From: Gammaproteobacteria bacterium
GTDB taxonomy: Bacteria > Pseudomonadota > Gammaproteobacteria > Natronospirales > JAJUFS01
DNA: 64,000 bases
Assembly (NCBI GenBank): GCA_033720815.1
Contig: JAWWBT010000001.1
Location: forward strand, 4,168-68,167
Reading direction: 5' to 3'
Shown here: one piece after another, positions 1,086-32,740 of the stretch
Numbering within the stretch: position 1 is the stretch's first letter
How the letters are laid out: the number at the start of each line of letters is the position of its first letter
Position numbers and translations under genes: made by a program
Notes under the pieces: generated by a model
The model's database searches: none
What the model saw: only the letters and a program-made list of their open reading frames with translations
What the model was told of the DNA's origin: nothing

Positions 1086-2015
1086 TCAATCGTCGCGGTG
1101 GCCCAGTTCGGTACCAAGTCGAGCCAGGCCCTTCTCGATATCCTCACCCAGCGCTATGGCGCCGGCACGCGTGATCGCATCACGGTGCTTGACCGAGGTA
1201 AGCCCACCGACTGCCACCGGGATATCCATCTGTTTCACCAGCTCCGGCAGCTCCTTGTCGAGGATGCGTGGAAGCGGCGAGATCGACCCGGAAAGCACGA
1301 TGCAATCGGCACTGCTGCGCTTTGCGGCCGTCGGCAGTTCATCGAGTGGCAGGTCGGAACCGAGCAGGATCATGCGGTAATCGTGCGTAACCGCGCTGAG
1401 CGCAAACAAAAGCAGGCCGATTTCGTGCTGTTCGCCCGGGAAACAGGCACCGAGCAGCTTCGGCCCACGCACGTTGCGCGTGCGGTGGTGGAAACGGGCG
1501 CCGAGCTTGTTGCGGAGGTAGACGCCAAAGAAATGCTCTTCCGCGATGCTCCCTTCGGCGGTTTCCCAGCGGCGGCCAAGTTCGCGCAGCAGCGGGATGA
1601 CGAGACGGCGGGTGACCTCACTGACGGGGTATAGCGACAACGCCTCGTTGTAGGTATCTTCCAGGTCTGCCTCGTCAAAACGGATGATCGCGGCGATCAT
1701 GCGACCGCGATACCGCGACCAGGCATCGCCGGACTGGCCATCTTCCTGTGCCGCTTCCTGGCGCTCCAGCGCATCACGGACCTGGCCGATGGACACACCC
1801 TTGTCGAGCAGGGCCAGGATTCGGTTTATGAGGTCGATGTCTTCCCGCGAATAGAGACGGTGCCCTTTCGGGGTGCGCTGCGGCTTGATCAGGCCGTAGC
1901 GTCTTTCCCACGCGCGCAGGGTGACCGAGTTGACCCCGGTCAGGCTCGAAACCGTACGGATCGGATAGAGATCCCCCTCCGCTCGCGCTTCCTGTTTTTT
2001 GGCCGTTTCGCTCAT
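1086..2015 (-). CDS. MerR-family, cobalamin-binding light-responsive transcriptional regulator (CarH/LitR class)
   Basis: Track ORF of 309 aa. It has an N-terminal MerR HTH (YPIRTVSSLTGVNSVTLRAWERRYGL). It then carries RRW-ETAEGSIAE-EH (W-x9-E-H) and GEQHEIGLL (E-x-H-x-x-G), the two signatures of AdoCbl-binding photoreceptor regulators. Confidence 0.8.
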   Translation of the reverse strand: MSETAKKQEARAEGDLYPIRTVSSLTGVNSVTLRAWERRYGLIKPQRTPKGHRLYSREDIDLINRILALLDKGVSIGQVRDALERQEAAQEDGQSGDAWSRYRGRMIAAIIRFDEADLEDTYNEALSLYPVSEVTRRLVIPLLRELGRRWETAEGSIAEEHFFGVYLRNKLGARFHHRTRNVRGPKLLGACFPGEQHEIGLLLFALSAVTHDYRMILLGSDLPLDELPTAAKRSSADCIVLSGSISPLPRILDKELPELVKQMDIPVAVGGLTSVKHRDAITRAGAIALGEDIEKGLARLGTELGHRDD

Positions 2016-2021
2016 GGTTTA

Positions 2022-2027
2022 ATTATA
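2022..2027 (-). promoter_or_regulatory. Candidate -10 element (perfect TATAAT) for the regulator gene, compatible with a leaderless mRNA
   Basis: The minus strand reads gtgTATAATtaaaccATG. Only 6 nt separate the hexamer from the ATG at 2015 and there is no Shine-Dalgarno. No convincing -35 was found. Confidence 0.4.
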
Positions 2028-2040
2028 CACAATTTATACA
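2023..2040. promoter_or_regulatory. Candidate operator: two TTATACA direct repeats with 11-bp phasing in the divergent regulator/SDR promoter region
   Basis: TTATACA occurs at 2023-2029 and 2034-2040. The first copy overlaps the TATAAT. The architecture is related to the TGTACA repeats at 9252-9279. Confidence 0.45.
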
Positions 2041-2104
2041 AAGAGTGTGAAACACCTGAATTACTGTATCATCATCCATTCAAGTCTCTTACACGGAGGA
2101 CTCC

Positions 2105-2875
2105 ATGGATAGCCTCGCCAATCGCATTGCCTGGATCACCGGCGGCGGCACCGGCATAGGGCGCGCCGTTGCACTGCGCCTGGCCCGGGACGGCTGGATT
2201 GTAGCCATTTCGGGGCGCCGCGAAGAGCCGCTGCAGGCCGTCGTCGACGAAGCCTCCGAGCTCGAGGGCCGCATCCACGCGGTCCCCTGCGACGTGACCG
2301 ACCGCGATGCCTGTACTCGTGCAGCGCAACAGATCGAGGAAGAGATCGGCCCATTGCACCTCGTGATCCTGAACGCGGGCACCTTCACCAGGTTCAAGCC
2401 ACTGGAGGATTTCGACGCTGCCTCCTTCGACAAGCATTACGCGGTAAATTTCTTCGGCGTCATCAATGGCATCAATGCGGCCCTGCCGTTGCTGAAGCAG
2501 CGGCGGTCCGGCCATATCGTGATCATTTCCAGCGTGTCCGGTTACCGCGGCCTGCCGCTGGCTGCGCCTTATGGCAGCAGCAAGGCAGCCTTGATCAACC
2601 TCGCCGAGTCGCTGAAGTTCGACCTGGCATCGGCTGGCATCGACATTACGGTGGTCAACCCCGGGTTTGTCGATACCCCGCTGACCGAGCAGAACCGCTT
2701 CTCGATGCCGGCAATCACCGATACCGCCGTGGCGGCCGATCGCATCGTGAATGGCATCTACCGCGGCAAGTTCGAGATCACCTTCCCGCGGCGATTCACG
2801 TATTTCCTTAAGCTTCTGCGCATGCTGCCGTACCGCCTGTACTTCCCGATCATGCGCAAGTTCACCGGGCGCTGA
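2105..2875 (+). CDS. Short-chain dehydrogenase/reductase (SDR) family oxidoreductase
   Basis: Track ORF of 256 aa with the TGGGTGIGRA glycine-rich motif and the PYGSSKAAL (Y-x3-K) catalytic motif. GGAGGA lies upstream of the ATG. Confidence 0.85.
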   Translation: MDSLANRIAWITGGGTGIGRAVALRLARDGWIVAISGRREEPLQAVVDEASELEGRIHAVPCDVTDRDACTRAAQQIEEEIGPLHLVILNAGTFTRFKPLEDFDAASFDKHYAVNFFGVINGINAALPLLKQRRSGHIVIISSVSGYRGLPLAAPYGSSKAALINLAESLKFDLASAGIDITVVNPGFVDTPLTEQNRFSMPAITDTAVAADRIVNGIYRGKFEITFPRRFTYFLKLLRMLPYRLYFPIMRKFTGR

Positions 2876-2892
2876 TCACTAGGAGGACGCAG

Positions 2893-3339
2893 ATGGATTG
2901 CCATGCAGCCCTGGCCCGCTATGCCGAACTGTTCGAGACGGTTTCACCGGACGTGCTGGACCGGCTCGACGATTACTTTGCGGCTGATGCCCGCTTCAAG
3001 GATCCGTTCAATGACGTGCGTGGGCTGGAGAGAATCCGGCACGTCTTCCAGCGCATGTTCGAGACCTGCCTGGACATCAGTTTCTCGGTGCATGAACGGT
3101 TCCTCGAGGGCCATGGCGACGGCAATACCGCCTGCCTCACCTGGACAATGACCTTCCGTCCGGATGTCGCTGGCCAGCGCGGCAAGACCTGGGAAATCCA
3201 CGGTGCATCACGAATCACCTTCGATGCCTCGGGTCGAGTTACCGAGCACATCGATTACTGGGATTCAGGCGAATACTTCTATGCGAAGCTGCCATTCATT
3301 GGCGCGATCATTCGCGCGGTAAGGCGCCGGGTCGGTTAA
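2893..3339 (+). CDS. NTF2/SnoaL-like fold protein (function unknown)
   Basis: Track ORF of 148 aa with AGGAGG 6 nt upstream. It is tightly packed between the SDR and HAD genes. The fold assignment is by size and composition only. Confidence 0.6.
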   Translation: MDCHAALARYAELFETVSPDVLDRLDDYFAADARFKDPFNDVRGLERIRHVFQRMFETCLDISFSVHERFLEGHGDGNTACLTWTMTFRPDVAGQRGKTWEIHGASRITFDASGRVTEHIDYWDSGEYFYAKLPFIGAIIRAVRRRVG

Positions 3340-3341
3340 CC

Positions 3342-4052
3342 ATGCACGATATACGCCTCATCACTTTCGATCTCGACGACACGCTCTGGGCCATCGCGCC
3401 AATCATCGAGCGAGCAGAGCGCCGCCTGCACGAATGGCTGCTCGCACACTGCCCGCGGGCCGCCTCGACCTACAGTCCGGCCGCGCTGCGTGGCCTGCGT
3501 GTCGAAGTCGAATCACTGTTCCCGGAGCACCGTGACGACATCAGCGCCCTGCGCCGCGAATCAATCCGGCTGGCACTGCAGCGCTGCGCGGGGCCGGTAC
3601 ACCGCACCGACGAAGCCTTCGACACTTTCTGGCAGGCTCGCAACGAGGTGGAATTCTTTGCCGACGTCATGCCGGTACTGGATCGCCTGAAGCCGGATTA
3701 CACGCTTGCTGCAATCAGCAACGGCAACGCCTGCATCGAGTTGACCGGGCTCTCCACCCATTTCGATTTCGGCCTGAGTGCCCGCGACGTCGGCGTGATG
3801 AAACCGGGAAAAGATATCTTCCTGCGCGCAGCGAGCGAAGCTGGCGTCACGCCGGACCAGGTATTGCACGTGGGTGACGATATCGATGCCGACGTGCACG
3901 GCGCGCTGGGTGCCGGCATGCACGCGGCCTGGCTCGATCGCGAAGGCCGTGAGCCGGTGTCGTTACCTGAACACGTGATACGCATCCGCGACCTTCACGC
4001 CCTGCAGGATCACCTGGAAGGCACACGCGGTAACGCCGTCAGGGCTTCTTGA
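3342..4052 (+). CDS. HAD-superfamily hydrolase
   Basis: Carries FDLDDTLW (DxDxT motif I), AISNGN (motif II) and VGDDIDADV (motif IV). It starts 2 nt after the upstream stop. Confidence 0.85.
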   Translation: MHDIRLITFDLDDTLWAIAPIIERAERRLHEWLLAHCPRAASTYSPAALRGLRVEVESLFPEHRDDISALRRESIRLALQRCAGPVHRTDEAFDTFWQARNEVEFFADVMPVLDRLKPDYTLAAISNGNACIELTGLSTHFDFGLSARDVGVMKPGKDIFLRAASEAGVTPDQVLHVGDDIDADVHGALGAGMHAAWLDREGREPVSLPEHVIRIRDLHALQDHLEGTRGNAVRAS

Positions 4053-4578
4053 AGAACAGCGTTATCTCGCCGACGGTAAATCCGAACTTCGAGAATTCTG
4101 CCCTGTTTACCAGCACGTCATCTTCGTGCAGGTACATCCAGTCGTTGAACCAGAAATTCCACGTGTCACCATCGACAGGAACCTGCAGGCTGTACTGCCA
4201 GTTAAGGGCGTTGCCGTAGGCCTCGCCTGTCGCCACACCATTCACGTCAGCGGCGCGACCTTCGTAACCATGCTCCCCGACCGGCGTGATGCGCCACTCG
4301 CGGTAGTCCGTCTCGCCGTCGTCGTAGATGAAATCTTCCTTCAGCACGAAGACATCGCCATCCCACTCGCCGACCATGTCGACGGTAAAGCGGCGCAGCA
4401 CCTCGCCCGAACGATCCTGCACGATTCCCCAGGCGCGAGTTTCGCCGGCGAAGTATTTCTCGATACGGAACTCGGGTTTTTCACCGGCATAGATTTCCGG
4501 GTCGGTCGCACAACCGCCCAGGCCGAGTGCAATGACGATTACCGCTGCAGGCAGCAGGCGAGTGAGCAGTTTCTTCAT
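4039..4578 (-). CDS. DUF3833-like lipoprotein
   Basis: Track ORF of 179 aa with a signal peptide and lipobox (LGLGGC). Its start overlaps the MFS stop (ATGA). Family recognised from EKPEFRIEKYFAGETRAWGIVQDRSG. Confidence 0.7.
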   Translation of the reverse strand: MKKLLTRLLPAAVIVIALGLGGCATDPEIYAGEKPEFRIEKYFAGETRAWGIVQDRSGEVLRRFTVDMVGEWDGDVFVLKEDFIYDDGETDYREWRITPVGEHGYEGRAADVNGVATGEAYGNALNWQYSLQVPVDGDTWNFWFNDWMYLHEDDVLVNRAEFSKFGFTVGEITLFFKKP

Positions 4579-5909
4579 GATGTCGCTCCTTGCGCACCGT
4601 TGGCAGCAATGCGATCACGCAATGCCTGCTGGCGCGCTTCGTCCAATGGAAAATCCCAGACCAGCCATGTCGAGGCCAGCTTGAACAGCACCGGCAGGCC
4701 GCCATACATCAGCGCCAGCGCCATGAGGCCGCCGTTTTCAGCGGCACCGGACTGCGGGTCAAACCCGGCCAGTTCGAGCAACGGAAAGGCAATGCCGACT
4801 GCCAGCGCGAGCGAAAGCTTCGTCGCCATGCTCCACAGGCCGAAATAGAGACCAGCCCGGCCGCCACCGCCTTCAGCGGTGTCTTCATCGACCACGTCAG
4901 CCTGGATGGATGCGGGCAGGGCCTGGTCGACACCGAGGCTGACCCCCGACAGCACGCAGATCGCCATGAACCACCAGATATCACCCGCGCCCAGGAACGG
5001 CACCCAGACAAATACCAGCGACGCCCACAGCATCGAGGCGATCCACACACGGTGCTTGCCGAAACGGCCGGCAAGGTTCAGCCACAACGGCAGGGACACG
5101 ACTCCGGCAAGGAAGTAAACGCCGAGGTAGATTCCGGTCCATTCCTGCTTGTCGAGAACGTGATTCACGAACAGCAGGAAAAGTGAGGCGGGCAGGCCAT
5201 TGGCCAGGCCGTTCAGGAGGTAGGCGACCAGCAGTCGCGTGAAGGACCGGTTCTTCTTCAGGATCTTCCAGCCATCTTTCAGGTTGACCGTTTCGGTTCG
5301 CTGGCGGGGTTCCCGGATAGCTGCAAGCAGTGCAATGACGGCAAGCGGAATCACGACAAGGAGGAACCAGGCAAGCACTCGCAATGCCTCGCCGCGTGGC
5401 ACGCCCTGGTACTCGAGCACGCCGGGAATTCCCACCGCAAGCAACGTACCCAGGATCACGAAACCTTCACGCGACACCGTGATGCGCGAGCGCACGTGGT
5501 AGTCATCGGAAATTTCTGCACCGAGCGCGGTATACGGCAGGATGACCAGTGTCCAGCCGAGGTAGGTGACGAGACTCCACAGCAACAGGTAGCCGGCACC
5601 GGCGTCGGTCGGCGGTACAAACAGGTACCAGCTCCCGGCCATCAGCATCGGCGCGCCGGCCAGCAACCAGGGGTAACGTCTTCCCCAGCGCGTCGGCAGG
5701 TAATCCGATGCGGTACCGATCAGGGGATCGGTGAACATGTCCACCAGCCGCGCCACCAGCAGAACGGTACCAACCGTGCCGATCGCGATGCCGATATCTT
5801 CCGCAAAGAATGTCGGGAGGTACACATAGAGCGGCAGGCCCAGCACGGCAAGCGGTACGCCGAGCAGGCCGTACGCGAGTAGCCGCGGCCAGGTAAAACG
5901 CTGTGACAT
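4575..5909 (-). CDS. MFS transporter (GPH/MelB-like)
   Basis: Track ORF of 444 aa with about 12 hydrophobic segments and the PTRWGRRYPW loop motif. Its start shares one nt with the upstream stop (TGATG). Confidence 0.8.
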   Translation of the reverse strand: MSQRFTWPRLLAYGLLGVPLAVLGLPLYVYLPTFFAEDIGIAIGTVGTVLLVARLVDMFTDPLIGTASDYLPTRWGRRYPWLLAGAPMLMAGSWYLFVPPTDAGAGYLLLWSLVTYLGWTLVILPYTALGAEISDDYHVRSRITVSREGFVILGTLLAVGIPGVLEYQGVPRGEALRVLAWFLLVVIPLAVIALLAAIREPRQRTETVNLKDGWKILKKNRSFTRLLVAYLLNGLANGLPASLFLLFVNHVLDKQEWTGIYLGVYFLAGVVSLPLWLNLAGRFGKHRVWIASMLWASLVFVWVPFLGAGDIWWFMAICVLSGVSLGVDQALPASIQADVVDEDTAEGGGGRAGLYFGLWSMATKLSLALAVGIAFPLLELAGFDPQSGAAENGGLMALALMYGGLPVLFKLASTWLVWDFPLDEARQQALRDRIAANGAQGATS

Positions 5910-7141
5910 CAGGAAGCCTCGCGCTCAAGCACGACCTGCATCACATCGGTGCGGTGATTGCGAAAGCCTGTTTCGCAATACTTCAGGTAGTAGTGCCACA
6001 TGCGCAGGAAGCGTTCATCGAAACCCTGCGCGATGATGTGGTCACGCACTGCGAAGACGCGCTTGTTCCAGCGCGAAAGCGTTTCCGCATAATCGAGGCC
6101 GTAGAATTCGCGCGCTGTTCTCTTGAGGCCGGCCTTTGCGGCAACACGATCGAAAACGCGCGGTGATGGCAGCATGCCGCCGGGGAAGATATAGCGCTGG
6201 ATGAAATCGACACCCTTGCGGTAGCTGTTGAAATCATCGTCATCAATGGTGATGACCTGGAGGGCTGCACGACCACCCGGCTTGAGTCGCTCGCGCACGG
6301 TGCGGAAATAGGACGGCCAGTATTCTTCTCCTACAGCCTCGAACATCTCGCAGCTGGCGATGGCATCAAACTGGCCCTCGGTATCGCGATAGTCCTGCAG
6401 GCGGAATTCGATGCGATCGGCAACGCCCACCTGCTCGGCACGTGCGCGCGCCTCTTCAAGCTGCTCGGTCGACAAGGTGATCGAGGTTACCCGGCAACCG
6501 GTAGCCTTCACGGCTTCGATCGCGAAGCCACCCCAGCCGGAACCGATCTCGAGCAGGTGCGAATCCGCGGTCAATTGCAGCGGTTCGCGCAGGCGACGGT
6601 ACTTTTCCCGCTGCGCTGATTCGAGGTCCTGGTCATCGGCGGTGAAGATCGCCGATGAATACGTCATCGTTTCATCAAGCCACAGGCGATAGAAATCGTT
6701 ACCAAGGTCGTAGTGGTACGAAATGTTGTCACGACTCTTCGATTTCGAGTTGCGACGACGCCAGTGGTAGATCACGTCCGCGATACGCGCGAGCCACTTG
6801 CCCGCTTCGACGCCCTGCAGTTCGTCACGATTGGTATCGAGCACGGTAAGCAGGTCGAGCAGTTTCGGCGTATCCCAGTCGCCCTCCATGTAGCCTTCGG
6901 CGAAACCCAGGTCACCACGGCGAAGAATGCGGCTGACTGCCGCTTCGTCCCGGATCACCCAGCGAGCAAATGGATGATTGCCCGTTTCACCTTCCGGCTG
7001 GCCGAGGACCACCTTCGCGCCACCAGGCAACTGCAACTCGATACCGCCCTTCTTCAGGCGCGACAGCGCGGCCAGCAACAGGCGTACCGGCAGGGACTGC
7101 CGTTCATCAAGACCGATAATCAGTGACCGTTCGTTCTGCAT
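5909..7141 (-). CDS. Cyclopropane-fatty-acyl-phospholipid-synthase-like SAM-dependent methyltransferase
   Basis: Track ORF of 410 aa with the SAM-binding motif LLEIGSGWGGFAIEA and the C-terminal WHYYLKYCETGF typical of CFA/mycolic-acid methyltransferase-like enzymes. Confidence 0.85.
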   Translation of the reverse strand: MQNERSLIIGLDERQSLPVRLLLAALSRLKKGGIELQLPGGAKVVLGQPEGETGNHPFARWVIRDEAAVSRILRRGDLGFAEGYMEGDWDTPKLLDLLTVLDTNRDELQGVEAGKWLARIADVIYHWRRRNSKSKSRDNISYHYDLGNDFYRLWLDETMTYSSAIFTADDQDLESAQREKYRRLREPLQLTADSHLLEIGSGWGGFAIEAVKATGCRVTSITLSTEQLEEARARAEQVGVADRIEFRLQDYRDTEGQFDAIASCEMFEAVGEEYWPSYFRTVRERLKPGGRAALQVITIDDDDFNSYRKGVDFIQRYIFPGGMLPSPRVFDRVAAKAGLKRTAREFYGLDYAETLSRWNKRVFAVRDHIIAQGFDERFLRMWHYYLKYCETGFRNHRTDVMQVVLEREAS

Positions 7142-7902
7142 GCTTCCGTGACCTCGTGCGCCGGGGGTTCCGGCTTGCGGTGAAAACGTGCACCCCTTAG
7201 CCAGAGCTTCAGGGCTTGCCAGTGGATCATCGCGACAACCTTAATGGTCATCAGCGGCACAGCGAAAAAGGCGCGCAACAGCTGCATATCGGTAAGCGGC
7301 ACACGGTGACCGCTCAGGGTCGCCACGAGCATGCGCTCGCCTTCTTCGTATTCGTCAATCAGCACGCGCATCTGCTGGCCGGGCGCGGCGATGGTGAAGC
7401 GATATTCCATACCCATGCCGATGAAGGGCGAAACATGGAACTGCTTCTTAACACTGTAGACCGTACCCTCGCGCAACGCTGAGCCATCCGGTTCGGCGAC
7501 AAGGTAGTGATGCTTTTCACCGAACGTATTGCGCACCTCGTAGATCACGGCACGCAGGCTGCCGTCGCGGTGATGGCAGAACCACAGGCTGAGCGGGTTG
7601 AACACGAATCCGAGAACGCGCGGAAAGCACAGCAATTCGATCTTGCCGCCATCGAGTCCGATACCCTTGCGTGCCAGCAACGTCACGGCCCAGTGGCGCA
7701 GGTCACCGCCATCTGCCGGGCCATGATCCTTCGGGTGGAAGCTGAACAGGTTGAAGCCACCCACCGAAAAAAGACGCATGCGAGTCGCAAGCTCTCCCAG
7801 GCGATCGATATCGACAAGCAGGCTGAACACGCGATAGACGAAGCGGTAACGCTTCGGGATCAGTCGCATGTGCATCACCTTGCTGCGGTAGAGCGCGTTC
7901 AT
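7120..7902 (-). CDS. DUF1365 family protein
   Basis: The track ORF (7120..8094) is trimmed to the ATG at 7902, one nt after the upstream stop (7904-7906). The product then begins MNALYRSKVMHMRLIPKRYRFVYRVFSLLVDIDRL, typical of DUF1365. The longer form would overlap the upstream gene by 190 nt. Confidence 0.75.
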   Translation of the reverse strand: MNALYRSKVMHMRLIPKRYRFVYRVFSLLVDIDRLGELATRMRLFSVGGFNLFSFHPKDHGPADGGDLRHWAVTLLARKGIGLDGGKIELLCFPRVLGFVFNPLSLWFCHHRDGSLRAVIYEVRNTFGEKHHYLVAEPDGSALREGTVYSVKKQFHVSPFIGMGMEYRFTIAAPGQQMRVLIDEYEEGERMLVATLSGHRVPLTDMQLLRAFFAVPLMTIKVVAMIHWQALKLWLRGARFHRKPEPPAHEVTEACRTNGH

Positions 7903-7903
7903 G

Positions 7904-9241
7904 TCAGCTTGCCTTCCGGAACTCTGGCACTTCCACACCGGAATCGGTTTCATTCCACGGTGGCCGCAACCCGAAGTGCTCGGCCACTCGCACGGCAGAG
8001 CGGAAACCATCCTCATGGAAACCATAGCCAGTCCACGCGCCGGCAAAGTAGAGATGCGGCCCCTGGATGTCGTCGAGCCGCTGCTGGGCTGCAACCGCTG
8101 ATGAGTCGAACACGGGGTGCTGGTAAGTAGCCCGATACATGACCTTGTCCGGGTCGGGTTCTCGCAGCGGGTTCAGGGACACGATGTAGTGGCGATCGGA
8201 CTCGATCGACTGCAACCGGTTCATCCAGTAGCTGACGGAAACATCGCCGCTGCCGTCCATTGCGTCATCGGCGAGGTAATTCCAGGACGACCATGCGAGG
8301 CGCCGCTGCGGCATGAGGGACGTGTCGCTGTGCAGGAAGGCTTCGTTGGGTTGTGTCTGGAACGCACCCAGCAATTCACGTTCGCGCTCGTTCGCATCCT
8401 GCATCATGGCCAGCGCCTGCGGTGCATGACAGGCAAGCACGACACGATCGAACGTGTCGCTGCGGCCGTCCGCGCTGGTCACCGTGACGGCATCGGCTTC
8501 GCGCCTGACAGCGACTACCGGCGTCGCGATTCGCACTTCGCCCGGAAAATCCGCCAGCAGGCGCTTGATGTATTCGTGGCTGCCGCCCACAACGGTACGC
8601 CACTGCGGTCGATTATTGACGCTGAGCAGGCCGTGGTTTTCGAAGAACTTCGCGAAACTCCTGGCAGGAAACTTCAGCATGGTGTCGGCCGGGCAACTCC
8701 AGATCGCGCCGCCCATGGGCAGGAGGTAGTGGTATCGGAAACGCGCGGAAAAACGGCCGGCATCGAGGTATTCACCCAGCGTCTGCTCGCCGAATCCGTC
8801 GCTGGCCAGGGTCGCGAGCGTTTCACGATTGAAGCGGAGAATTTCCAGCAGCATCCGCCAGTGGCGTGGTCGCAGGAGATTGCGACGCTGCGCGAAGAGC
8901 GTGTTCAGGTTGTCGCCGGCGTACTCCAGCGCACCTTCGGCGATGCTTACGCCAAAGGACATGTCGGAGGCCTGCGTCGGCACCTTGAGCCAGTTGAACA
9001 GGGCGGTCAGCAGCGGATAGTTCTTCTCGTTGTACACGATAAAGCCCGTATCGACCGACACCTCACCACCGCGCTCACGAACGGTCACCGTGTTCGTGTG
9101 GCCACCGAGGCGCTCCGCAGATTCGTAAAGCGTGACATCGTGCCCGCGCGACAGCAGCCAGGCACTGCCGAGGCCACTAATGCCTGCGCCAATGACCGCG
9201 ACGCGTTCTCGCGTTCCGTGAGAGCTGTATTCCCGTGACAT
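7904..9241 (-). CDS. FAD-dependent oxidoreductase, amine-oxidase/desaturase-like
   Basis: Track ORF of 445 aa with the dinucleotide-binding motif VAVIGAGISGLGSAWLL...LYE...RLGGH. AGGAA lies upstream of the ATG. Confidence 0.85.
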   Translation of the reverse strand: MSREYSSHGTRERVAVIGAGISGLGSAWLLSRGHDVTLYESAERLGGHTNTVTVRERGGEVSVDTGFIVYNEKNYPLLTALFNWLKVPTQASDMSFGVSIAEGALEYAGDNLNTLFAQRRNLLRPRHWRMLLEILRFNRETLATLASDGFGEQTLGEYLDAGRFSARFRYHYLLPMGGAIWSCPADTMLKFPARSFAKFFENHGLLSVNNRPQWRTVVGGSHEYIKRLLADFPGEVRIATPVVAVRREADAVTVTSADGRSDTFDRVVLACHAPQALAMMQDANERERELLGAFQTQPNEAFLHSDTSLMPQRRLAWSSWNYLADDAMDGSGDVSVSYWMNRLQSIESDRHYIVSLNPLREPDPDKVMYRATYQHPVFDSSAVAAQQRLDDIQGPHLYFAGAWTGYGFHEDGFRSAVRVAEHFGLRPPWNETDSGVEVPEFRKAS

Positions 9242-9251
9242 GAGGTGTTCC

Positions 9252-9279
9252 TGTCAATAATTTGTACAGTTCTTGTACA
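9252..9279. promoter_or_regulatory. Candidate operator: three 11-bp-phased hexamers TGTCAA / TGTACA / TGTACA
   Basis: The hexamers start at 9252, 9263 and 9274 (exact 11-bp period), 11-38 nt upstream of the oxidoreductase ATG (9241, minus strand). Confidence 0.5.
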
Positions 9280-9313
9280 ATAATAGCTCACTATAAAGCA
9301 AGATATATTCACG

Positions 9314-9337
9314 CATGTACAAGTTTTCTTGTACATG
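9314..9337. promoter_or_regulatory. Candidate operator: perfect inverted repeat CATGTACAAG-N4-CTTGTACATG
   Basis: The 10-bp arms at 9314-9323 and 9328-9337 contain two more TGTACA hexamers (9316, 9330). It lies in the same intergenic region as the direct repeats. Confidence 0.5.
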
Positions 9338-9433: not shown

Positions 9434-10405
9434 CTACCGACCCGGCGAGACAGCCGGTGAAGCGAATTCGTCAAAGTGAATGTCGCGGGCAGACGCGCCG
9501 GAAAGAAAGATGCGCTGGCGTAACCGCCCGACCACGCCCGGCGCTCCACACAACATGACCTTGAATCCGGCGAGGTCAGGAAGGTCCTCGAACAACCGTT
9601 TCTCTACCGACGTTTCACCGCTGCGATCGCGGCCCACGCAGGGTGTGTAGCGAACACCCTGAAATTCCATGGCGATGGTGCTGAGAAATTCATCGAATAC
9701 GAGGTCCGCCGACTCTCGAACACCGTGGTAGATGCTGACGGGCCCGACCTGGCCGCTGCGCAAGGCATCGCGCAATACACCGGTGAGGGGCGCCATGCCG
9801 ACGCCCGACCCGACCAGCAACAAGGGCTGTTCGCACCCATCGGCGTGAAAGAAGCAGTCTCCGGCAGGGCCCCGGAAGCTCAGCATTTCTCCGCGACACA
9901 GGTCATTGGCCAGCCAGTGACTCATGTACCCATCCGGCAGGATCCGCACATAACACTCGAGCCAGTCGTCTTCCCCTGGCAGGCTGGTCAGCGAATAGGC
10001 ACGGCCCACCGACTCGTCACGCCAGATCGAAATGTACTGTCCGGCCCGGTAATCGAATCCTTCCGGCCGCTCGAATCTCAATCGCAGGATATCGTGCGAT
10101 ACGCGTACGCTTGAAATGACAGTCGCTGACCATTTCAGCGTGTCATGATCCGGCCGGACACACGTGATATCTGCCCCGGACCGTGCCTGGCAGGCCAGGA
10201 AGTGCCCGCTGAGCCTCAAGCCCTCTGAAAGTCCCGCCTGCGCTTCTGCAGGAGGCGTACCCTCGACAGCCCGCACCATGCACGTCTGGCAGTTGCCGCT
10301 CCGGCAACCGAAAGACAGCCACTCCCCGGCCGCATGAATGGCATCGAGCACCGACTCCCCACCGTTTACGGGGATTTCCTTGCCTTCGAAGACCAACCGT
10401 CTCAT
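9434..10405 (-). CDS. [2Fe-2S] ferredoxin / FAD / NAD(P)H oxidoreductase (BenC/MmoC-type domain order)
   Basis: Track ORF of 323 aa with N-terminal CRSGNCQTC...FLACQ (Cx4Cx2C...C), RAYSLTS (RxYS FAD site) and GSGVGMAPL (nucleotide-binding motif). Its start is 1 nt from the globin stop. Confidence 0.85.
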   Translation of the reverse strand: MRRLVFEGKEIPVNGGESVLDAIHAAGEWLSFGCRSGNCQTCMVRAVEGTPPAEAQAGLSEGLRLSGHFLACQARSGADITCVRPDHDTLKWSATVISSVRVSHDILRLRFERPEGFDYRAGQYISIWRDESVGRAYSLTSLPGEDDWLECYVRILPDGYMSHWLANDLCRGEMLSFRGPAGDCFFHADGCEQPLLLVGSGVGMAPLTGVLRDALRSGQVGPVSIYHGVRESADLVFDEFLSTIAMEFQGVRYTPCVGRDRSGETSVEKRLFEDLPDLAGFKVMLCGAPGVVGRLRQRIFLSGASARDIHFDEFASPAVSPGR

Positions 10406-10406
10406 G

Positions 10407-10775
10407 TCAGAGATTCAGCACGTCGTCGTGAACGGAAAGAGCGATCGCCTTCACTTCGGCAATATCCTCATTCGCCACGCCGAGTTCCGCACAGGTATCG
10501 AGCAGGTGCTCAACCACCGCCACGAAGTGGGCTTCTGCCATGCCCTGTTCCACGAATCGCTTGTGGGCATCCCGCAGGGCGCGCCCGTCATAGTGGTTCG
10601 GTCCGCCAAACGCCATGGTCAGGAAGGCACGTTGCCGTGCCACCTGGCGTTGCATGTCGGTGAATTCGAAAAACGGTGCCAGCAACGGGTCACTGAGCAC
10701 CTTGCGGTAGAAGATATCGACGGCCTGCTCGACGGCCACCTGGCCGCCGATGCGTTCATAAAGGGACTGGGTCAT
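10407..10775 (-). CDS. glbN: Group I truncated (2-on-2) haemoglobin
   Basis: Track ORF of 122 aa. MTQSLYERIGGQVAVEQAVDIFYRKVLSDPLLAPFF...AHKRF... matches the trHbN pattern (conserved GG, B-helix F-Y, proximal His in HKRF). Confidence 0.8.
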   Translation of the reverse strand: MTQSLYERIGGQVAVEQAVDIFYRKVLSDPLLAPFFEFTDMQRQVARQRAFLTMAFGGPNHYDGRALRDAHKRFVEQGMAEAHFVAVVEHLLDTCAELGVANEDIAEVKAIALSVHDDVLNL

Positions 10776-15246: not shown

Positions 15247-16704
15247 TCAATCGTTCCGCTTCTTCAGTTCCTTCAATGCCGCCAGGGCATCTTCCCTGCT
15301 CTGCCTGTAGTCCACGACCGGGTCCGGGTAATCCCTCCCCGGCTTGAAGCCCTTTGCGCGCTGGACCTCCGCAGGCGTTTCCCAGGGCTGGAAGAGGTAT
15401 TTCTCCGGCAAGGCTGCGAGTTCCGGAACGTACTTCCGGATGTACGCGGCAGTATCGAATTTCTCTGCCTGCGTCATCGGGTTGAAGATGCGGAAATACG
15501 GTGCAGCATCCGCACCGCAACCCGCGGCCCATTGCCAACCCATCGTGTTGTTCGCGAGATCGGCATCGACCAGCGTATCCCAGAACCAGCGCGCACCTTC
15601 CTGCCACGGAATACGCAGGTTCTTGACCAGCAGTGACGCAACGATCATGCGCACGCGGTTGTGCATCCAGCCTTCCTGCCAGAGCTGGCGCATCCCGGCA
15701 TCGACGATCGGGTAACCCGTTTCGCCATGTTGCCAGGCTTGCAGCAAGGCGGCGTAATCCTCGCGCCACGGAAAATTCGCGTATTTCGGGTACATCGGCT
15801 CGTCGGGCGTATGCGGAAAGTGAAACAGCACATGATGTGCAAACTCGCGCCAACCCAGTTCGCGCAGGAAGGATGCGGCACCCCGTCGGGTACCGGGCTC
15901 GGCCTGCATTTCGTTGTTGGTCGCAGCCCAGACCTGTCGCGGGGAAATCTCGCCGAAATGCAGGTAGGGCGACAGCCGTGAGACGTCATCACGCGAAGGA
16001 TAATCCCGCCCTTCCTTGTATGCCTTCACCGGTTCGTCAAGAAAGGCGCTCAGACGTTCGTGCGCACCGGCTTCGCCGGGTGCCCACGTTTCCGCGATAC
16101 CACTCGTCCAATCGATTTGTGGCAAAAGGTCGAGTTCGCGCACGCGCAAGCGCTGCGGCCATGAAGACGGCGCGGGAATGTCGCGGGGCGCGGGCAGCGG
16201 CTGGTCGACTTCGAGTGTCGGTTCGAGTGATTTCCAGAAGGGTGTGAAGACGCGATACGGCTGACCCTGCTTCGTCATGTGACGCGTCGGTTCATGCAGC
16301 AGGCAACCCGCATGGCTGACGGCGAGCACACCTTCCTCACCCAGCACCTTCTTCACCTTTGCATCGCGCGCCACGACATGCGGTTCATAGAGGCGGTTCC
16401 AGTGCACGGCTTCCGCGCCCGTTTCCTCGATGAGCATGCGCAACTCCTGCAGGGAATCACTGGCGCGACGAATGACGAGATTCGAACCGCGTTCGCGCAA
16501 GTCCTGTTTCAGCGCGCGCAGGCTGTGATGCAGCCACCATCGCGACGCGGCACCGGGCTGCCAGTCAGCGCCATTGATGTGATCTTCTTCCGGCGCATGA
16601 ATATAGACCGGCACGACGGTATCCGCGGCGTCGAGCGCGGCACGCAGCGCACTGTTGTCAGCGAGGCGGAAATCGCGGCGGAACCAGGCGATGGCAACCG
16701 TCAT
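15247..16704 (-). CDS. phrB: Deoxyribodipyrimidine photolyase
   Basis: The track ORF is trimmed to the ATG at 16704 (MTVAIAWFRRDFRLADNSAL). C-terminal FAD-binding motifs: TSRLSPYLHFGEISPRQ, GWMHNRVRMIVASLLVKNL, DADLANNTMGWQWAAG. Confidence 0.9.
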   Translation of the reverse strand: MTVAIAWFRRDFRLADNSALRAALDAADTVVPVYIHAPEEDHINGADWQPGAASRWWLHHSLRALKQDLRERGSNLVIRRASDSLQELRMLIEETGAEAVHWNRLYEPHVVARDAKVKKVLGEEGVLAVSHAGCLLHEPTRHMTKQGQPYRVFTPFWKSLEPTLEVDQPLPAPRDIPAPSSWPQRLRVRELDLLPQIDWTSGIAETWAPGEAGAHERLSAFLDEPVKAYKEGRDYPSRDDVSRLSPYLHFGEISPRQVWAATNNEMQAEPGTRRGAASFLRELGWREFAHHVLFHFPHTPDEPMYPKYANFPWREDYAALLQAWQHGETGYPIVDAGMRQLWQEGWMHNRVRMIVASLLVKNLRIPWQEGARWFWDTLVDADLANNTMGWQWAAGCGADAAPYFRIFNPMTQAEKFDTAAYIRKYVPELAALPEKYLFQPWETPAEVQRAKGFKPGRDYPDPVVDYRQSREDALAALKELKKRND

Positions 16705-16779
16705 GGAGTGAACCCTGTCATTACAGCAGCGGGGTATCGAGTGTATGGTAGGCAAACCTGTCGCAACAACGTGAACAAC

Positions 16780-24718: not shown

Positions 24719-25807
24719 TCACCTGTCCTGGTAAGGCATTTTCGGGTGGCGCGCCTGCCATTCGCGCATGCCGAATATCGCCAGCGTGACGAAGGTCAAC
24801 GGTATGGCGAAGAAGATCAGCGCATCGGCATAGGTTTCGGTCACTGCACTACCCGTTGCCGACAGCAGCAACCAGGTCACGTACACGACATAGTAGGCAA
24901 GAAACAGCGCGCCTTCCCATCGAGATATGAGGTTACCGGTAAAGAAGATCGGCAGGCAGGCGACAGCTACGGCAATCATGATCGGGAAATCGAATTCCTG
25001 CACGGCTTCGCGCACGGCGATCCCGCCCGGCGCGATGAGCGAGGCGAGGCCGAGGACGGCCATGATGTTGAACAGGTTGCTGCCGACGACGTTGCCGACG
25101 GCAATATCACGCTCGCCACGCAGCGCGGCCATTACGGACGTTGCGACCTCCGGCAGCGAAGTCCCCGCGGCAATGATGGTCAGGCCGATGACAAGCTCGG
25201 ACACACCGAAGGAACGTGCAATGGCAACGGCCGATTCGACCAGCCAACCGGCGCCTGCAACCAGCAGGCCAAGGCCAGCGCCAATCAAGAGGACCTGCAC
25301 GACCCAGCTCTCGGGTTTCACGTCGTCTTCGGCGCCGTCGTCGTCACCTGGCATTTCCTGCCGCCCCTTGATGATCAGGAACAGGGTATAGGCCACGGCA
25401 ATCGCCAATAGCACCATGCCGTCTACACGCCCCAGGGCATCATCCAGCGAGAACAGCCAGGCGAGCACGCAGACCCCGATCATCAGCGGCACGTCCAGCC
25501 GGACGAGTTGCTGCTGCACCAGCAGGGGGGTGATCAATGCCGACAGGCCGAGGATCACGAGCACGTTGAAGATATTGCTGCCGATGACATTACCCAGCGC
25601 AATGTCGCCCTGCCCGGCCAGGCTCGCATCAATGCTGACAGCAATTTCAGGAGAGCTGGTACCCAGTGCAACAACGGTAAGGCCGATGACCAGCGAGGAA
25701 ATCCCGAAGCGAGCTGCCAGCCGGCTCGCACCGCGCACCAGCAGTTCGGCACCGACCAGCAGCGCAGCCAGGCCGAGCAGCAACCACAGCAAGGTGGCAA
25801 GACTCAT
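24719..25807 (-). CDS. yrbG: Ca2+/Na+ antiporter (CaCA family, YrbG-like)
   Basis: Track ORF of 362 aa with two alpha-repeat motifs (GTSSPEIAVS and GTSLPEVATS) and about 10 TM segments. Its start overlaps the upstream stop (ATGA). Confidence 0.8.
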   Translation of the reverse strand: MSLATLLWLLLGLAALLVGAELLVRGASRLAARFGISSLVIGLTVVALGTSSPEIAVSIDASLAGQGDIALGNVIGSNIFNVLVILGLSALITPLLVQQQLVRLDVPLMIGVCVLAWLFSLDDALGRVDGMVLLAIAVAYTLFLIIKGRQEMPGDDDGAEDDVKPESWVVQVLLIGAGLGLLVAGAGWLVESAVAIARSFGVSELVIGLTIIAAGTSLPEVATSVMAALRGERDIAVGNVVGSNLFNIMAVLGLASLIAPGGIAVREAVQEFDFPIMIAVAVACLPIFFTGNLISRWEGALFLAYYVVYVTWLLLSATGSAVTETYADALIFFAIPLTFVTLAIFGMREWQARHPKMPYQDR

Positions 25808-26805
25808 TCAGAACCTCCCTCAAGTACATACTGGAAGACCAGCGGCGCGACGATGGTCGCATCCGATTCGATGATGAACTTCGGTGTATCCGGAGCGAGC
25901 TTGCCCCAGGTAATCTTTTCGTTCGGCACCGCTCCGGAATACGAACCGTAACTCGTTGTGGAATCACTGACCTGGCAGAAGTACGACCACAGCGGCGTGC
26001 GCCGGTCGAGATCCTGTTCCAGCATCGGTACCACGCAGATCGGGAAATCGCCGGCGATTCCACCGCCGACCTGGAAGAAGCCGATACCGGAATCCTGCGC
26101 GGTCTCGGTGTACCAGTCGGCGAGCATGATCATGTACTCGATACCGGACTTCACCGTGTGCACGTTCTTGATGTCGCCATTGATGCAATGCGCGGCAAAG
26201 ACGTTGCCAAGCGTCGAGTCTTCCCAACCCGGCACGATGATCGGCAGGTTCTTTTCCGCCGCTGCAACCATCCAGGAATCACGCGGGTCGACCTGGTAAT
26301 ACTGTTCCAGCACACCGGAGCGGATCAGCTTGTACAGGAACTCGTGCGGGAAGAAGCGTTCGCCATCGGCCTCGGCCTTCTGCCACTCGGCGAGGATGTG
26401 ATCCTCGATACGACGGATCGCCTCGCCCTCAGGGATACAGGTATCGGTCACGCGGTTGAGATGCCGATCAAGCAGGTCCTGCTCGTCGGCCGGCGTCAGC
26501 TCGCGCCAGTTCGGCACGCGCTCGTAATGGTCGTGCGCGACGAGGTTGAAGATATCCTCTTCAAGGTTCGCGCCAGTGCAACTGATGGCATGCACCTTCC
26601 CCTGCCGGATCATTTCCGCCAGCGAAATACCCAGCTCGGCCGTCGACATCGCACCGGCGAGCGTGACAAGCATGCGATCACCGCGCTCCAGCAGCCTGAT
26701 CCAGCCTTCGGCGGCATCGACCAGGCTGGCCGCGTTGAAATGGCGGTAATGGTGCTTGAGGAAGGCGGCAATGCCTTGCTTGCCCGGGCTCATTCTCTGG
26801 GTCAT
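25804..26805 (-). CDS. Deoxyhypusine-synthase-like protein
   Basis: Track ORF of 333 aa. LVTLAGAMSTAELG...HAISCTGANLEEDIF...GGGIAGDF resembles the DHS / homospermidine-synthase-like family. AGGAG lies 5 nt upstream. Confidence 0.75.
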   Translation of the reverse strand: MTQRMSPGKQGIAAFLKHHYRHFNAASLVDAAEGWIRLLERGDRMLVTLAGAMSTAELGISLAEMIRQGKVHAISCTGANLEEDIFNLVAHDHYERVPNWRELTPADEQDLLDRHLNRVTDTCIPEGEAIRRIEDHILAEWQKAEADGERFFPHEFLYKLIRSGVLEQYYQVDPRDSWMVAAAEKNLPIIVPGWEDSTLGNVFAAHCINGDIKNVHTVKSGIEYMIMLADWYTETAQDSGIGFFQVGGGIAGDFPICVVPMLEQDLDRRTPLWSYFCQVSDSTTSYGSYSGAVPNEKITWGKLAPDTPKFIIESDATIVAPLVFQYVLEGGSE

Positions 26806-31900: not shown

Positions 31901-32740
31901 TCAGTGGTCGGTAATGTCGACGAGCTCTACGCTGCCGGGAGCCGGCGCCTCTCCCAGGAAACGCGTCGCCGTCGCATGAAAGCGGTCGAGGTTATCCGTG
32001 ACAAGATACCGGACCTCGCCGCGGGCTTCAGCCGCTTCACGGCTCAATCTTCGCGCCGCCAGGTCCCCTGCAACCCGTGCTGCGGTGGTCGCTGCGGAAT
32101 CGACGATGGTCACCGAGGCTGGCAAGGCCGCCGCGATGGCATCACGCAGCACCGGGAAATGCGTACAACCCAGTACCAGCACGTCACGACCGTGCATCCA
32201 CTCGCCGGCTTCACCATGGAAATAGCGCGCCAGCGCGGCATCGACGACCGGACCCTCCGTCCAGCCTTCCTCGGCCAGCGCCACCAGCAGCGCGCAGGCC
32301 TGCGCCCGGACATCGGCACCCGGTTCGAGCGCGGTGACTGCACGGGAATACGCGCCGCCCCGCACCGTACCTTCGGTTGCAATAACGCCGATGCGACGGG
32401 TTTTCGATGCGGCAACCGCCGCTGCTGCGCCGGGTTCGATGACGCCTTCGACGAGACGGTCGGGCCATTCTTCCTGCACCGCAGGCAGCGCCACCGCCGA
32501 GGCGGTATTGCAGGCAATCACCAGCGCCTTCACACCACGCCGCTCCAGCAGGCCGGCTGCCTGCAGGGCGTAACGCTGCACGGTTTCCGGCGACCGGGTG
32601 CCGTATGGCACGCGCGCCGTATCACCGAGGTAAAGGAATGATTCCTGCGGCATGGCTTCGCGCAAGGCGCGCAGCACGGTCAGTCCGCCCACGCCGGAAT
32701 CGAAAATACCGATCGGCAGGTCAGTTGCGCTATCCGTCAC
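31901..32740 (-). CDS. murI: Glutamate racemase
   Basis: Motifs IGIFDSGVGGLTV, DTARVPYG, ACNTAS and GCTHFP. I chose the GTG start at 32740, which overlaps the kinase stop (GTGA). An in-frame ATG at 32767 is the alternative. Confidence 0.85.
   Translation of the reverse strand: MTDSATDLPIGIFDSGVGGLTVLRALREAMPQESFLYLGDTARVPYGTRSPETVQRYALQAAGLLERRGVKALVIACNTASAVALPAVQEEWPDRLVEGVIEPGAAAAVAASKTRRIGVIATEGTVRGGAYSRAVTALEPGADVRAQACALLVALAEEGWTEGPVVDAALARYFHGEAGEWMHGRDVLVLGCTHFPVLRDAIAAALPASVTIVDSAATTAARVAGDLAARRLSREAAEARGEVRYLVTDNLDRFHATATRFLGEAPAPGSVELVDITDH

Follow-up and report, generated by a model that had tools for sequence, protein, structure and literature searches.

The characterised CarH proteins bind operators made of tandem 11-bp direct repeats with the consensus 5'-nnnnTnnACAn-3', three in Thermus and four in Bacillus, which overlap the -35 or the -10 element; operators with just one or two good repeats are still bound, and in Cystobacter the protein binds as a dimer, for which two repeats in tandem are required (PMC9304148). 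Characterised CarH tetramers use three or four repeats. In Pseudomonas, a cluster of short-chain dehydrogenase/reductase (SDR), flavin adenine dinucleotide (FAD)-oxidoreductase and ufaM genes is light-induced via class II LitR proteins and T(G/A)TACA hexamers, one site being located at -35 and one between the transcription start site (TSS) and the start codon (PMC9758184). Here we describe a carH/litR-like gene, referred to as carH, in a 64,000-nucleotide stretch (the window) of the contig JAWWBT010000001.1 of an uncultured gammaproteobacterium (assembly GCA_033720815.1, positions 4,168 to 68,167), together with its candidate operators and neighbouring genes, whose coordinates are collected in Table 1. 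We consider it probable that the carH product is an adenosylcobalamin (AdoCbl)-dependent class I LitR/CarH photoreceptor-repressor that represses its own gene, controls a divergent SDR operon and an operon resembling the ufa genes, and is produced from a leaderless transcript.

The first-pass annotation of this DNA had assigned the MerR-family open reading frame (ORF) to the CarH/LitR class, and a hidden Markov model scan confirmed the assignment by detecting all three domains, namely the MerR helix-turn-helix (HTH), B12-binding_2 and B12-binding. The limits of the ORF, the length of the divergent region and both protein motifs were also confirmed in the sequence. The peptide RRWETAEGSIAEEHFF holds W150-x9-E160-H161 and GEQHEIG (in GEQHEIGLL) holds E195-x-H197-x-x-G200, the complete cobalamin motif being ExHxxG-x41-SxS-x25-GG (E195-Q-H197-E-I-G200, S242-G-S244) with a Ser at the third position of SxT/V in the general form D/ExHxxG-x41-SxT/V-x22-27-GG. 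The Rossmann region matched the B12 domain of MetH in a sequence search (E 7e-6). An identical protein from a metagenome-assembled genome (MAG) is annotated in NCBI just as 'MerR family transcriptional regulator'. Because an in-frame TAA lies two codons 5' of the carH ATG and no ATG, GTG or TTG occurs from residue 1 to the HTH, which begins at residue 17, position 2015 is the sole usable start.

Sequence and structural comparisons pointed to the same family. A phmmer search against the PDB sequences returned Thermus thermophilus CarH/LitR (TtCarH; 3WHP, 5C8D) as the best match, with an E value of about 3e-35 over residues 14-262. The AlphaFold2 model of the carH product showed a predicted local distance difference test (pLDDT) value of 84.3 and five beta strands in the Rossmann region (E186-191 to E287-290). 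When the model was compared with the PDB by Foldseek, the 12 best matches were all TtCarH chains (E 1.5e-17 to 1.9e-13; the top ones, 5c8e/5c8f/5c8d, at about 1e-17), and the template modelling score normalised to the target reached 0.80 for the cobalamin-binding domain alone (3whp). In the phmmer alignment, W150, E160 and H161 fell on TtCarH W131, E141 and H142, and H197 to the lower axial ligand H177, thus bearing out the Trp/Glu/His signatures claimed in the first-pass annotation.

The same residues were conserved in a set of 23 homologues with 57-87% identity (alignment A1), where W150, E160, H161, E195, H197, G200, S242, G270 and G271 are invariant in all 23 sequences; so are R34 to R39 of the recognition-helix motif, and its last residue, Y40, is conserved to at least 90%. 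The carH product carries the intact Wx9EH, which in CarH caps the 5'-deoxyadenosyl group, and the B12 motif that together separate CarH from the B12-independent CarA (PMC9304148), and the presence of the Rossmann domain makes it a class I and not a class II LitR in Takano's scheme (PMC9758184). The peptide YLRNKLGARFHH (residues 166-177, nt 1485-1520) is nearly wholly invariant in the 23 homologues and does not occur in TtCarH; it sits where the fourth helix of the bundle ends and the Rossmann subdomain joins on, at the place of Gly160 in TtCarH, and model confidence is low nearby (pLDDT 54 for residues 171-180). The clade to which the carH product belongs is very large, uncharacterised and mainly gammaproteobacterial, with E values of 1e-20 or better in 5905 of the 8000 candidates scored and at least 483 confirmed genomic matches among the GTDB species-representative genomes. 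One Acidiferrobacterales MAG, ES_Gamma_002, holds two carH paralogues on different contigs (L002, L012), so that some genomes have more than one clade member.

As operator, the first-pass annotation had proposed two TTATACA repeats spaced 11 bp apart (2023-2029 and 2034-2040) in the carH/SDR intergenic region. Both 11-bp units, TAATTATACAC and AATTTATACAA, match the published CarH consensus exactly. A search of the window for the 18-nt repeat pattern with up to two mismatches returned 2 sites against an expectation of 0.01 per 64 kb obtained by shuffling, the second one belonging to a different regulatory region within the carH cluster, and TRTAYA-N5-TRTAYA with at most one mismatch was likewise found at just two sites in the window, both in the carH cluster. 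The comparison was extended to 80 genomic loci with homologues of 52-65% identity and to nine closer relatives (L081-L089), these 89 loci and the window amounting to about 1 Mb of DNA. Within 200 bp 5' of carH in 82 loci, same-strand TGTAYA pairs occurred 20 times at exactly 11 bp and never at 10 or 12 bp. In the whole set, TRTAYA-N5-TRTAYA was present 65 times, compared with 0-7 occurrences for each of the 18 other spacers from N2 to N20, and 44 of the 65 sites lie within 300 bp upstream of carH. The proposed operator thus stands, its spacing being family-wide and concentrated 5' of carH, and these counts provide strong evidence that the repeats are the cognate autoregulatory operator of the carH protein family.

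The repeats are interwoven with the putative carH promoter. TTCACA-18-TATAAT matches the sigma-70 consensus at 11 of 12 positions and is the sole promoter-like site in 900-2300. The first-pass annotation had described the TATAAT as lying 6 nt from the ATG and overlapping both repeats; the distance is exactly 6 nt (2021-2016, followed by the ATG at 2015-2013) and the first repeat is indeed overlapped, but the second is not, as it is located in the 18-nt spacer between -10 and -35. A2015 is the seventh nucleotide after the -10, and the last T of TATAAT falls at -7 if A2015 is taken as +1; since this is the canonical distance, the carH transcript would open with AUG. The distance between hexamer and start codon, 12 nt when counted from the first T, is also the one at which the 'TA-like' signal predicting bacterial leaderless genes is most often found (PMC3160421). 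No Shine-Dalgarno (SD)-like motif was found at carH in -18..-4. Such a motif precedes 27 of the 42 window genes (naive start calls), indicating that the host organism uses SDs normally, and carH is the only one of the 42 with a TANNNT 11-14 nt from the start codon.

The same arrangement was observed in related loci. The window and five of the nine close relatives all have a TATAAT or TATAGT that is separated from the ATG by 6-7 nt, and the intervening nucleotides all differ (TAAACC, ATCGGC, TACTGTC, TACTGGC, AATCTT and TTACACC in the window, L081, L085, L086, L082 and L084, respectively); a fixed distance with free sequence is what is expected of a discriminator region and not of a 5' untranslated region. 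The loci L043, L025 and L034, which are less closely related, show the geometry as well. A TANNNT at 11-14 nt occurs in 9 of the 82 family loci; SD-like motifs are missing from all 9 but present in 33 of the remaining 73 (Fisher p 0.0095). The features by which leaderless genes are recognised, i.e., the spacing of the -10, the absence of an SD and a conserved geometry, are therefore present in the sequence, and the +1 is predicted. Together with the forced start codon and the variable bases of the conserved gap, they support the leaderless transcript already suggested in the first-pass annotation, and we regard it as rather likely that the carH mRNA starts at the A of its ATG.

Several findings weigh against the interpretation given above, and they are considered here together with the explanations that they would favour. 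Protein and operator might be as described and carH might still not be leaderless, the TATAAT being a by-product of the TGTATA-AT repeat and the mRNA a leadered, SD-less and poorly translated one that derives from an upstream start or from read-through. Leaderless mRNAs are uncommon in Gammaproteobacteria, and the promoter-scan match is without significance when taken alone (1 found, 0.5 expected in 1.4 kb). No conserved -35 could be recognised in the relatives on inspection of alignments A2 and A4, and the subclade formed by L083, L087 and L088 has a weaker -10. Moreover, the repeat pair lies further from the ATG in 73 of the 82 loci, 33 of which have an SD-like motif, so that leaderless expression is no family-wide property. 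A leadered mRNA would, however, leave unexplained why six clade members keep a gap of 6-7 nt whose sequence is free to vary and why distant loci repeat it, and it has to be set against the missing SD, the immovable start codon and the lack of any other promoter-like site in the 89-bp region; we consider it unlikely, if by no means negligible. A far weaker candidate is the reading of the repeats as a chance feature of AT-rich intergenic DNA or as the site of an unrelated regulator. The GC content is indeed 0.535 for 2001-2200 compared with about 0.6 around, and TGTACA is palindromic and easily found, but the agreement with an experimentally defined CarH repeat, the excess over the shuffled expectation and the preference for N5 upstream of carH make a chance origin extremely improbable; this reading was discarded as effectively refuted by the exact 11-bp spacing in the carH upstream regions of the relatives and by the N5 enrichment.

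The remaining explanation concerns the signal. The carH product might be a CarH relative that does not work by AdoCbl photolysis, either a CarA-like B12-independent repressor, or a sensor of B12 availability, or a protein relieved by a partner as class II LitR is by LOV. Against the main reading in general, the Pfam B12-binding score of 28.8 is under the gathering score of 32.1. The NCBIfam CarH equivalog NF052513 (TransRegCarH) was the best-scoring model but gave 150.1 bits against a cut-off of 400, and for this reason the carH product is to be seen as a distant family member and no close orthologue of a characterised CarH. The position of TtCarH His132, the residue after the Trp, is occupied by E151 and by Glu, Gln or Ala in 23 of 23 homologues; His132 is the upper ligand of the bis-His cobalamin adduct formed after photolysis, and a His is present in 'many' homologues without being strictly defining (PMC9304148). 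The clade-specific invariant motif at the bundle/Rossmann junction could also be read in favour of a different mode of action. Neither a cobalamin riboswitch nor any other RNA family was matched in the 64-kb window by the Rfam scan, and no gene for B12 uptake, synthesis or adenosylation was seen by the Pfam scan, which covered most window ORFs. A further point against the main reading is the photolyase gene. Photolyase belongs to the LitR/MerR light regulon in Pseudomonas and Vibrio, and the photolyase gene of the window (15247-16755), 6 kb from the cluster, has no TRTAYA-N5-TRTAYA upstream. On the other hand, CarA is without the Trp of Wx9EH (PMC9304148) and class II LitR without the Rossmann domain (PMC9758184), whereas the carH product has both with the key residues invariant; the N12 spacing of class II sites shows no enrichment, with 2 occurrences compared with 65 of N5, the targets across the clade are photo-oxidative-stress genes, and no LOV gene lies beside carH in the window or among the called neighbours in L081-L089. 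A mechanism other than AdoCbl photolysis is thus judged improbable.

The size of the operator was also examined. No third or fourth in-register repeat was found at the carH site, where the registers in 2042-2063 keep only the T (2046 and 2057). The oriented profile of 54 sites holds information in two registers only, with the flanking registers at background, and a Thermus-like three-repeat model was therefore dropped for this site; the clade typically uses a two-repeat operator. The tetramer-interface Gly160 of TtCarH, in turn, is aligned with an Arg in the carH product. The two-repeat operator and the missing Gly160 equivalent leave room for a dimer-type binding like that of Cystobacter CarH.

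Table 1. Position of the carH gene, its product's domains and the associated regulatory elements and genes in the 64-kb window
Feature	Coordinates	Strand	Details
carH/litR-like gene	1086..2015	-	309 aa, ATG start; product with MerR HTH, then four-helix bundle, then Rossmann B12 domain
MerR-type winged-helix DNA-binding domain, residues 17-85	1761..1967	-	Pfam MerR_1, 1e-17
Recognition-helix motif RAWERRY, R34-Y40	within 1761..1967	-	fits RxWERRY (PMC9304148)
Four-helix-bundle subdomain (B12-binding_2), residues 105-173	1497..1703	-	Pfam, 4.7e-12
Wx9EH motif, residues 150-161	1533-1568	-	inside the bundle subdomain
Rossmann-type cobalamin-binding subdomain, residues 186-286	1158..1460	-	Pfam B12-binding, 28.8 bits
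E195-x-H197-x-x-G200	1416-1433	-	followed by x41-S242-x-S244-x25-G270-G271
Start codon ATG of carH	2013..2015	-	A2015 predicted +1 of a leaderless mRNA
-10 hexamer TATAAT	2022..2027 (reads 2027-2022)	-	overlaps direct repeat 1 by 4 nt
-35-like hexamer TTCACA	2046..2051	-	18-nt spacer to TATAAT
Candidate CarH operator	2020..2041	+	two tandem 11-bp direct repeats, TAATTATACAC (2020-2030) and AATTTATACAA (2031-2041)
TnnACA cores (TATACA)	2024-2029 and 2035-2040	+	inside the 2020..2041 operator
carH/SDR intergenic region	2016-2104		89 bp; the SDR ATG follows at 2105
Possible SDR -10 TATCAT	2067-2072	+	read from sequence
SDR SD GGAGG	2096-2100	+	read from sequence
SDR - SnoaL-like - HAD hydrolase operon	2105..4052	+	Pfam; divergent from carH
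AMP-binding (acyl-CoA-synthetase-like) gene	2-937, runs off the window start	-	GTG start, AAGGAG SD
Second candidate operator	9252..9279	-	three in-register TnnACA: TGTACA (9279-9274), TGTACA (9268-9263), TTGACA (9257-9252)
Putative target operon, five genes	4039..9241	-	Pfam, NCBIfam
FAD amine-oxidase-like (UfaD-like) gene	7904-9241	-	opens at ATG 9241
DUF1365 (UfaO-like) gene	probably 7120-7902	-	Pfam
Cyclopropane-fatty-acid (CFA)-synthase-like methyltransferase gene	5909-7141	-	Pfam
MFS_2 transporter gene	4575-5909	-	Pfam
DUF3833 gene	4039-4578	-	Pfam

The genes around carH are arranged in the same way in close relatives. The SDR-SnoaL-HAD synteny is conserved in L081-L084, and L085-L087 likewise have an SDR gene divergent from carH. 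Where contigs are long enough, the synteny takes in carH, the divergent SDR-SnoaL-HAD genes, the ufa-like operon that converges on them and the AMP-binding gene downstream; the shorter contigs also show the divergent SDR gene and, where the family was recorded, the downstream AMP-binding gene. The SDR-SnoaL-HAD operon is probably co-repressed by the carH product. A further conserved element, TGTAYA-N7-nGTACn with a 13-bp spacing, was observed by the SDR start in the relatives, most clearly in L081-L084, L085 and L087, where it overlaps the likely SDR -10. It is degenerate in the window (2064-2084, TTGAAT...GATACA), so that control of the SDR operon may be weaker here or may be exerted via the carH-proximal repeats alone. 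On the other side of carH, the AMP-binding gene lies 148 bp downstream on the same strand, a position that it also occupies in L081, L082, L084, L086 and L087, and it may be part of the same fatty-acid-related light response.

The pattern search that found the carH repeats also detected TTGTACAgttcTTGTACA at 9262-9279, within a second candidate operator that was absent from the first-pass annotation. This three-repeat operator ends 10 nt 5' of the ATG at 9241, the start of the ufa-like operon, and a TRTAYA-N5-TRTAYA is present at the equivalent position in L081 and L063. In Rhodobacter, UfaD and UfaO (DUF1365), encoded by the RSP1091-1087 operon, make furan fatty acids (PMC7380195). The first three families of the operon in the window correspond to those of RSP1091-1087, a likeness at the level of Pfam families, and by analogy a function in furan-fatty-acid metabolism can be proposed. 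The mechanically called DUF1365 ORF (7120-8094) starts with TTG at 8094, so that 190 nt are shared with the amine-oxidase gene. As the DUF1365 proteins of relatives are 261-266 aa long and begin immediately behind the stop codon of the preceding gene, translation probably starts at ATG 7902 (MNALYRS..., 260 aa).

The promoter of this operon could not be placed, which also counts among the weaknesses of the proposed regulation: TATAGT (9295-9290) is without a usable -35, and the TACAAT/TATAAT of L083 and L084 aligns to TACAAG in the window. About 55 bp 5' of the three-repeat operator we observed a perfect inverted repeat, ATGTACAAG-TTTT-CTTGTACAT, at 9315-9336. It has two more TGTACA, spaced N8; L081, L083 and L084 have kept just one of them, the promoter-proximal TTGTACA. 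The inverted repeat could be a second CarH site at -35, as in the Pseudomonas layout for class II LitR, or could be bound by a different factor. Directly 5' of the operon and in the same direction lie genes for a truncated (bacterial-like) globin and a Fer2/FAD/NAD ferredoxin reductase (9434-10775); in L083 the same pair, together with an Rrf2 regulator, precedes the amine-oxidase gene. These proteins could supply reductant for an oxygenase step or form a separate nitric oxide/oxidative module.

Across the related loci, N5 sites were also found before SDR, amine-oxidase and CFA-synthase genes, and before genes for glutathione peroxidase, MsrA, a chalcone-isomerase-like protein, YgaP-like small membrane proteins and DUF3429. 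Such a set of genes is one for photo-oxidative stress and is in keeping with control by a light sensor. A repeat pair also precedes a gene for a fasciclin-domain protein in three unrelated loci (L044, L054 and L072; sites 534, 5162 and 5180), suggesting that this gene is a conserved regulon member. In L010 (7179/7210) and L016 (5295/5326), two repeat pairs spaced 31 bp apart, i.e., about three helical turns, are located 5' of a YgaP-like gene downstream of carH. Unrelated to carH, the window also contains a deoxyhypusine-synthase-family gene (25804-26805) and a gene for a CHASE2-domain Ser/Thr protein kinase (32737-35352).

The mechanism that we propose is taken from the established behaviour of TtCarH, Bacillus megaterium CarH (BmCarH) and the myxobacterial CarH proteins, the behaviour of the TtCarH type being reportedly described by Jost et al. 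in 2015. By analogy with these proteins we infer AdoCbl binding, the light response, repression and oligomerisation; the TSS is predicted from the promoter geometry. In the dark, the AdoCbl-loaded carH product would oligomerise and its MerR-type winged helices would bind both TATACA cores, the complex covering the whole operator and probably extending over pseudo-repeats to about 2063. The -10, the spacer and the -35 of carH would be masked; with the -10 lying partly in the first repeat and the spacer to the -35 taken up by the second, RNA polymerase would be excluded and carH autorepressed. The same complex would mask the likely -35 region of the back-to-back SDR promoter, and a second complex on 9252-9279, between promoter region and start codon, would block the ufa-like operon. 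Upon illumination the Co-C bond would be cleaved and the oligomer would dissociate, leading to derepression of all three units and to the induction of membrane and photo-oxidative-stress defence, with the carH transcript most likely beginning at the A of its ATG.

We also put forward, more tentatively, that the clade might represent a distinct CarH subtype, characterised by the KLGARFHH motif, the absence of His132 and Gly160 equivalents, an AdoCbl-dependent dimer or other non-Thermus oligomer, a two-repeat operator, the use of TGTATA-AT as leaderless -10 and a coupling to furan fatty acids and photo-oxidative stress; this proposal is possible, although we would not rate it as the more probable outcome. 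If true, the subtype would take the regulatory role that is filled by sigmaE-ChrR or by LOV and class II LitR in other Proteobacteria.

On the whole, the carH product is a distant addition to the CarH/class I LitR family, well supported, and plausible and useful rather than surprising. It differs from characterised CarH proteins in degree, i.e., in the two-repeat operator, the repeat doubling as -10, the probable leaderless mRNA, the non-carotenoid targets and the absence of a His132 equivalent, and the finding challenges no current idea. The B12-photoreceptor paradigm, built on carotenoid control in a small number of cultured models, would be extended to a very large uncultured gammaproteobacterial set and to another kind of output, the modification of membrane fatty acids and the defence against oxidative stress. 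Among the papers searched, none ties CarH to leaderless mRNAs, photolyase or cyclopropane-synthase clusters. The 22-bp two-repeat operator coinciding with promoter and leaderless start makes a compact module that could serve as a minimal light switch, and the regulon of the CarH proteins of this clade should be predictable from sequence via the repeat.

Among the known systems, Thermus thermophilus CarH/LitR (5C8D, 5C8E, 5C8F, 3WHP) resembles the carH product in its three-module architecture, fold, RxWERRY and Wx9EH motifs and lower-axial His, and it also has 11-bp TnnACA repeats over its own promoter and a gene divergent from a light-induced operon. However, the two proteins share only about 30-34% identity, and the Thermus operator has three repeats compared with the two found here. 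The Thermus repeat is located at -35, whereas the present ones lie over the -10 and the spacer, and equivalents of Thermus His132 and Gly160 are absent. The neighbours in Thermus are carotenoid genes; here they are fatty-acid-modifying and oxidative-stress genes, and the mRNA is putatively leaderless. The Bacillus megaterium CarH/LitR and the myxobacterial CarH proteins of Cystobacter, Sorangium and Haliangium are AdoCbl-dependent repressors on tandem 11-bp repeats over -10 or -35, as proposed for this locus, but their operators span four or five registers and their targets are carotenoid genes, while the clade of carH shows two informative registers.

Myxococcus xanthus CarA has the same domain order and type of DNA-binding domain as the carH product but is without the Trp of Wx9EH, which is intact here, is B12-independent and needs the antirepressor CarS (PMC9304148). 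PplR1 and PmlR2, class II LitR proteins of Pseudomonas that are paired with a short LOV protein, share the MerR HTH and four-helix bundle, the hexamer T(G/A)TACA / TGTA(C/T)A and a light-induced cluster of similar make-up (SDR, FAD oxidoreductase, ufaM and hypothetical proteins), and the layout at 9252-9335 resembles their two-site arrangement; they differ in having no Rossmann B12 domain, in being relieved by LOV and in their N12 hexamers, whereas the locus described here has an intact Rossmann domain and N5 spacing. Finally, Rhodobacter sphaeroides RSP1091-1087 (ufaD, ufaO) contains the same target-operon families, namely FAD oxidoreductase, DUF1365 and CFA-synthase-like methyltransferase, but is regulated by an extracytoplasmic function (ECF) sigma/anti-sigma pair, within the sigmaE-ChrR singlet-oxygen regulon, and not by CarH.

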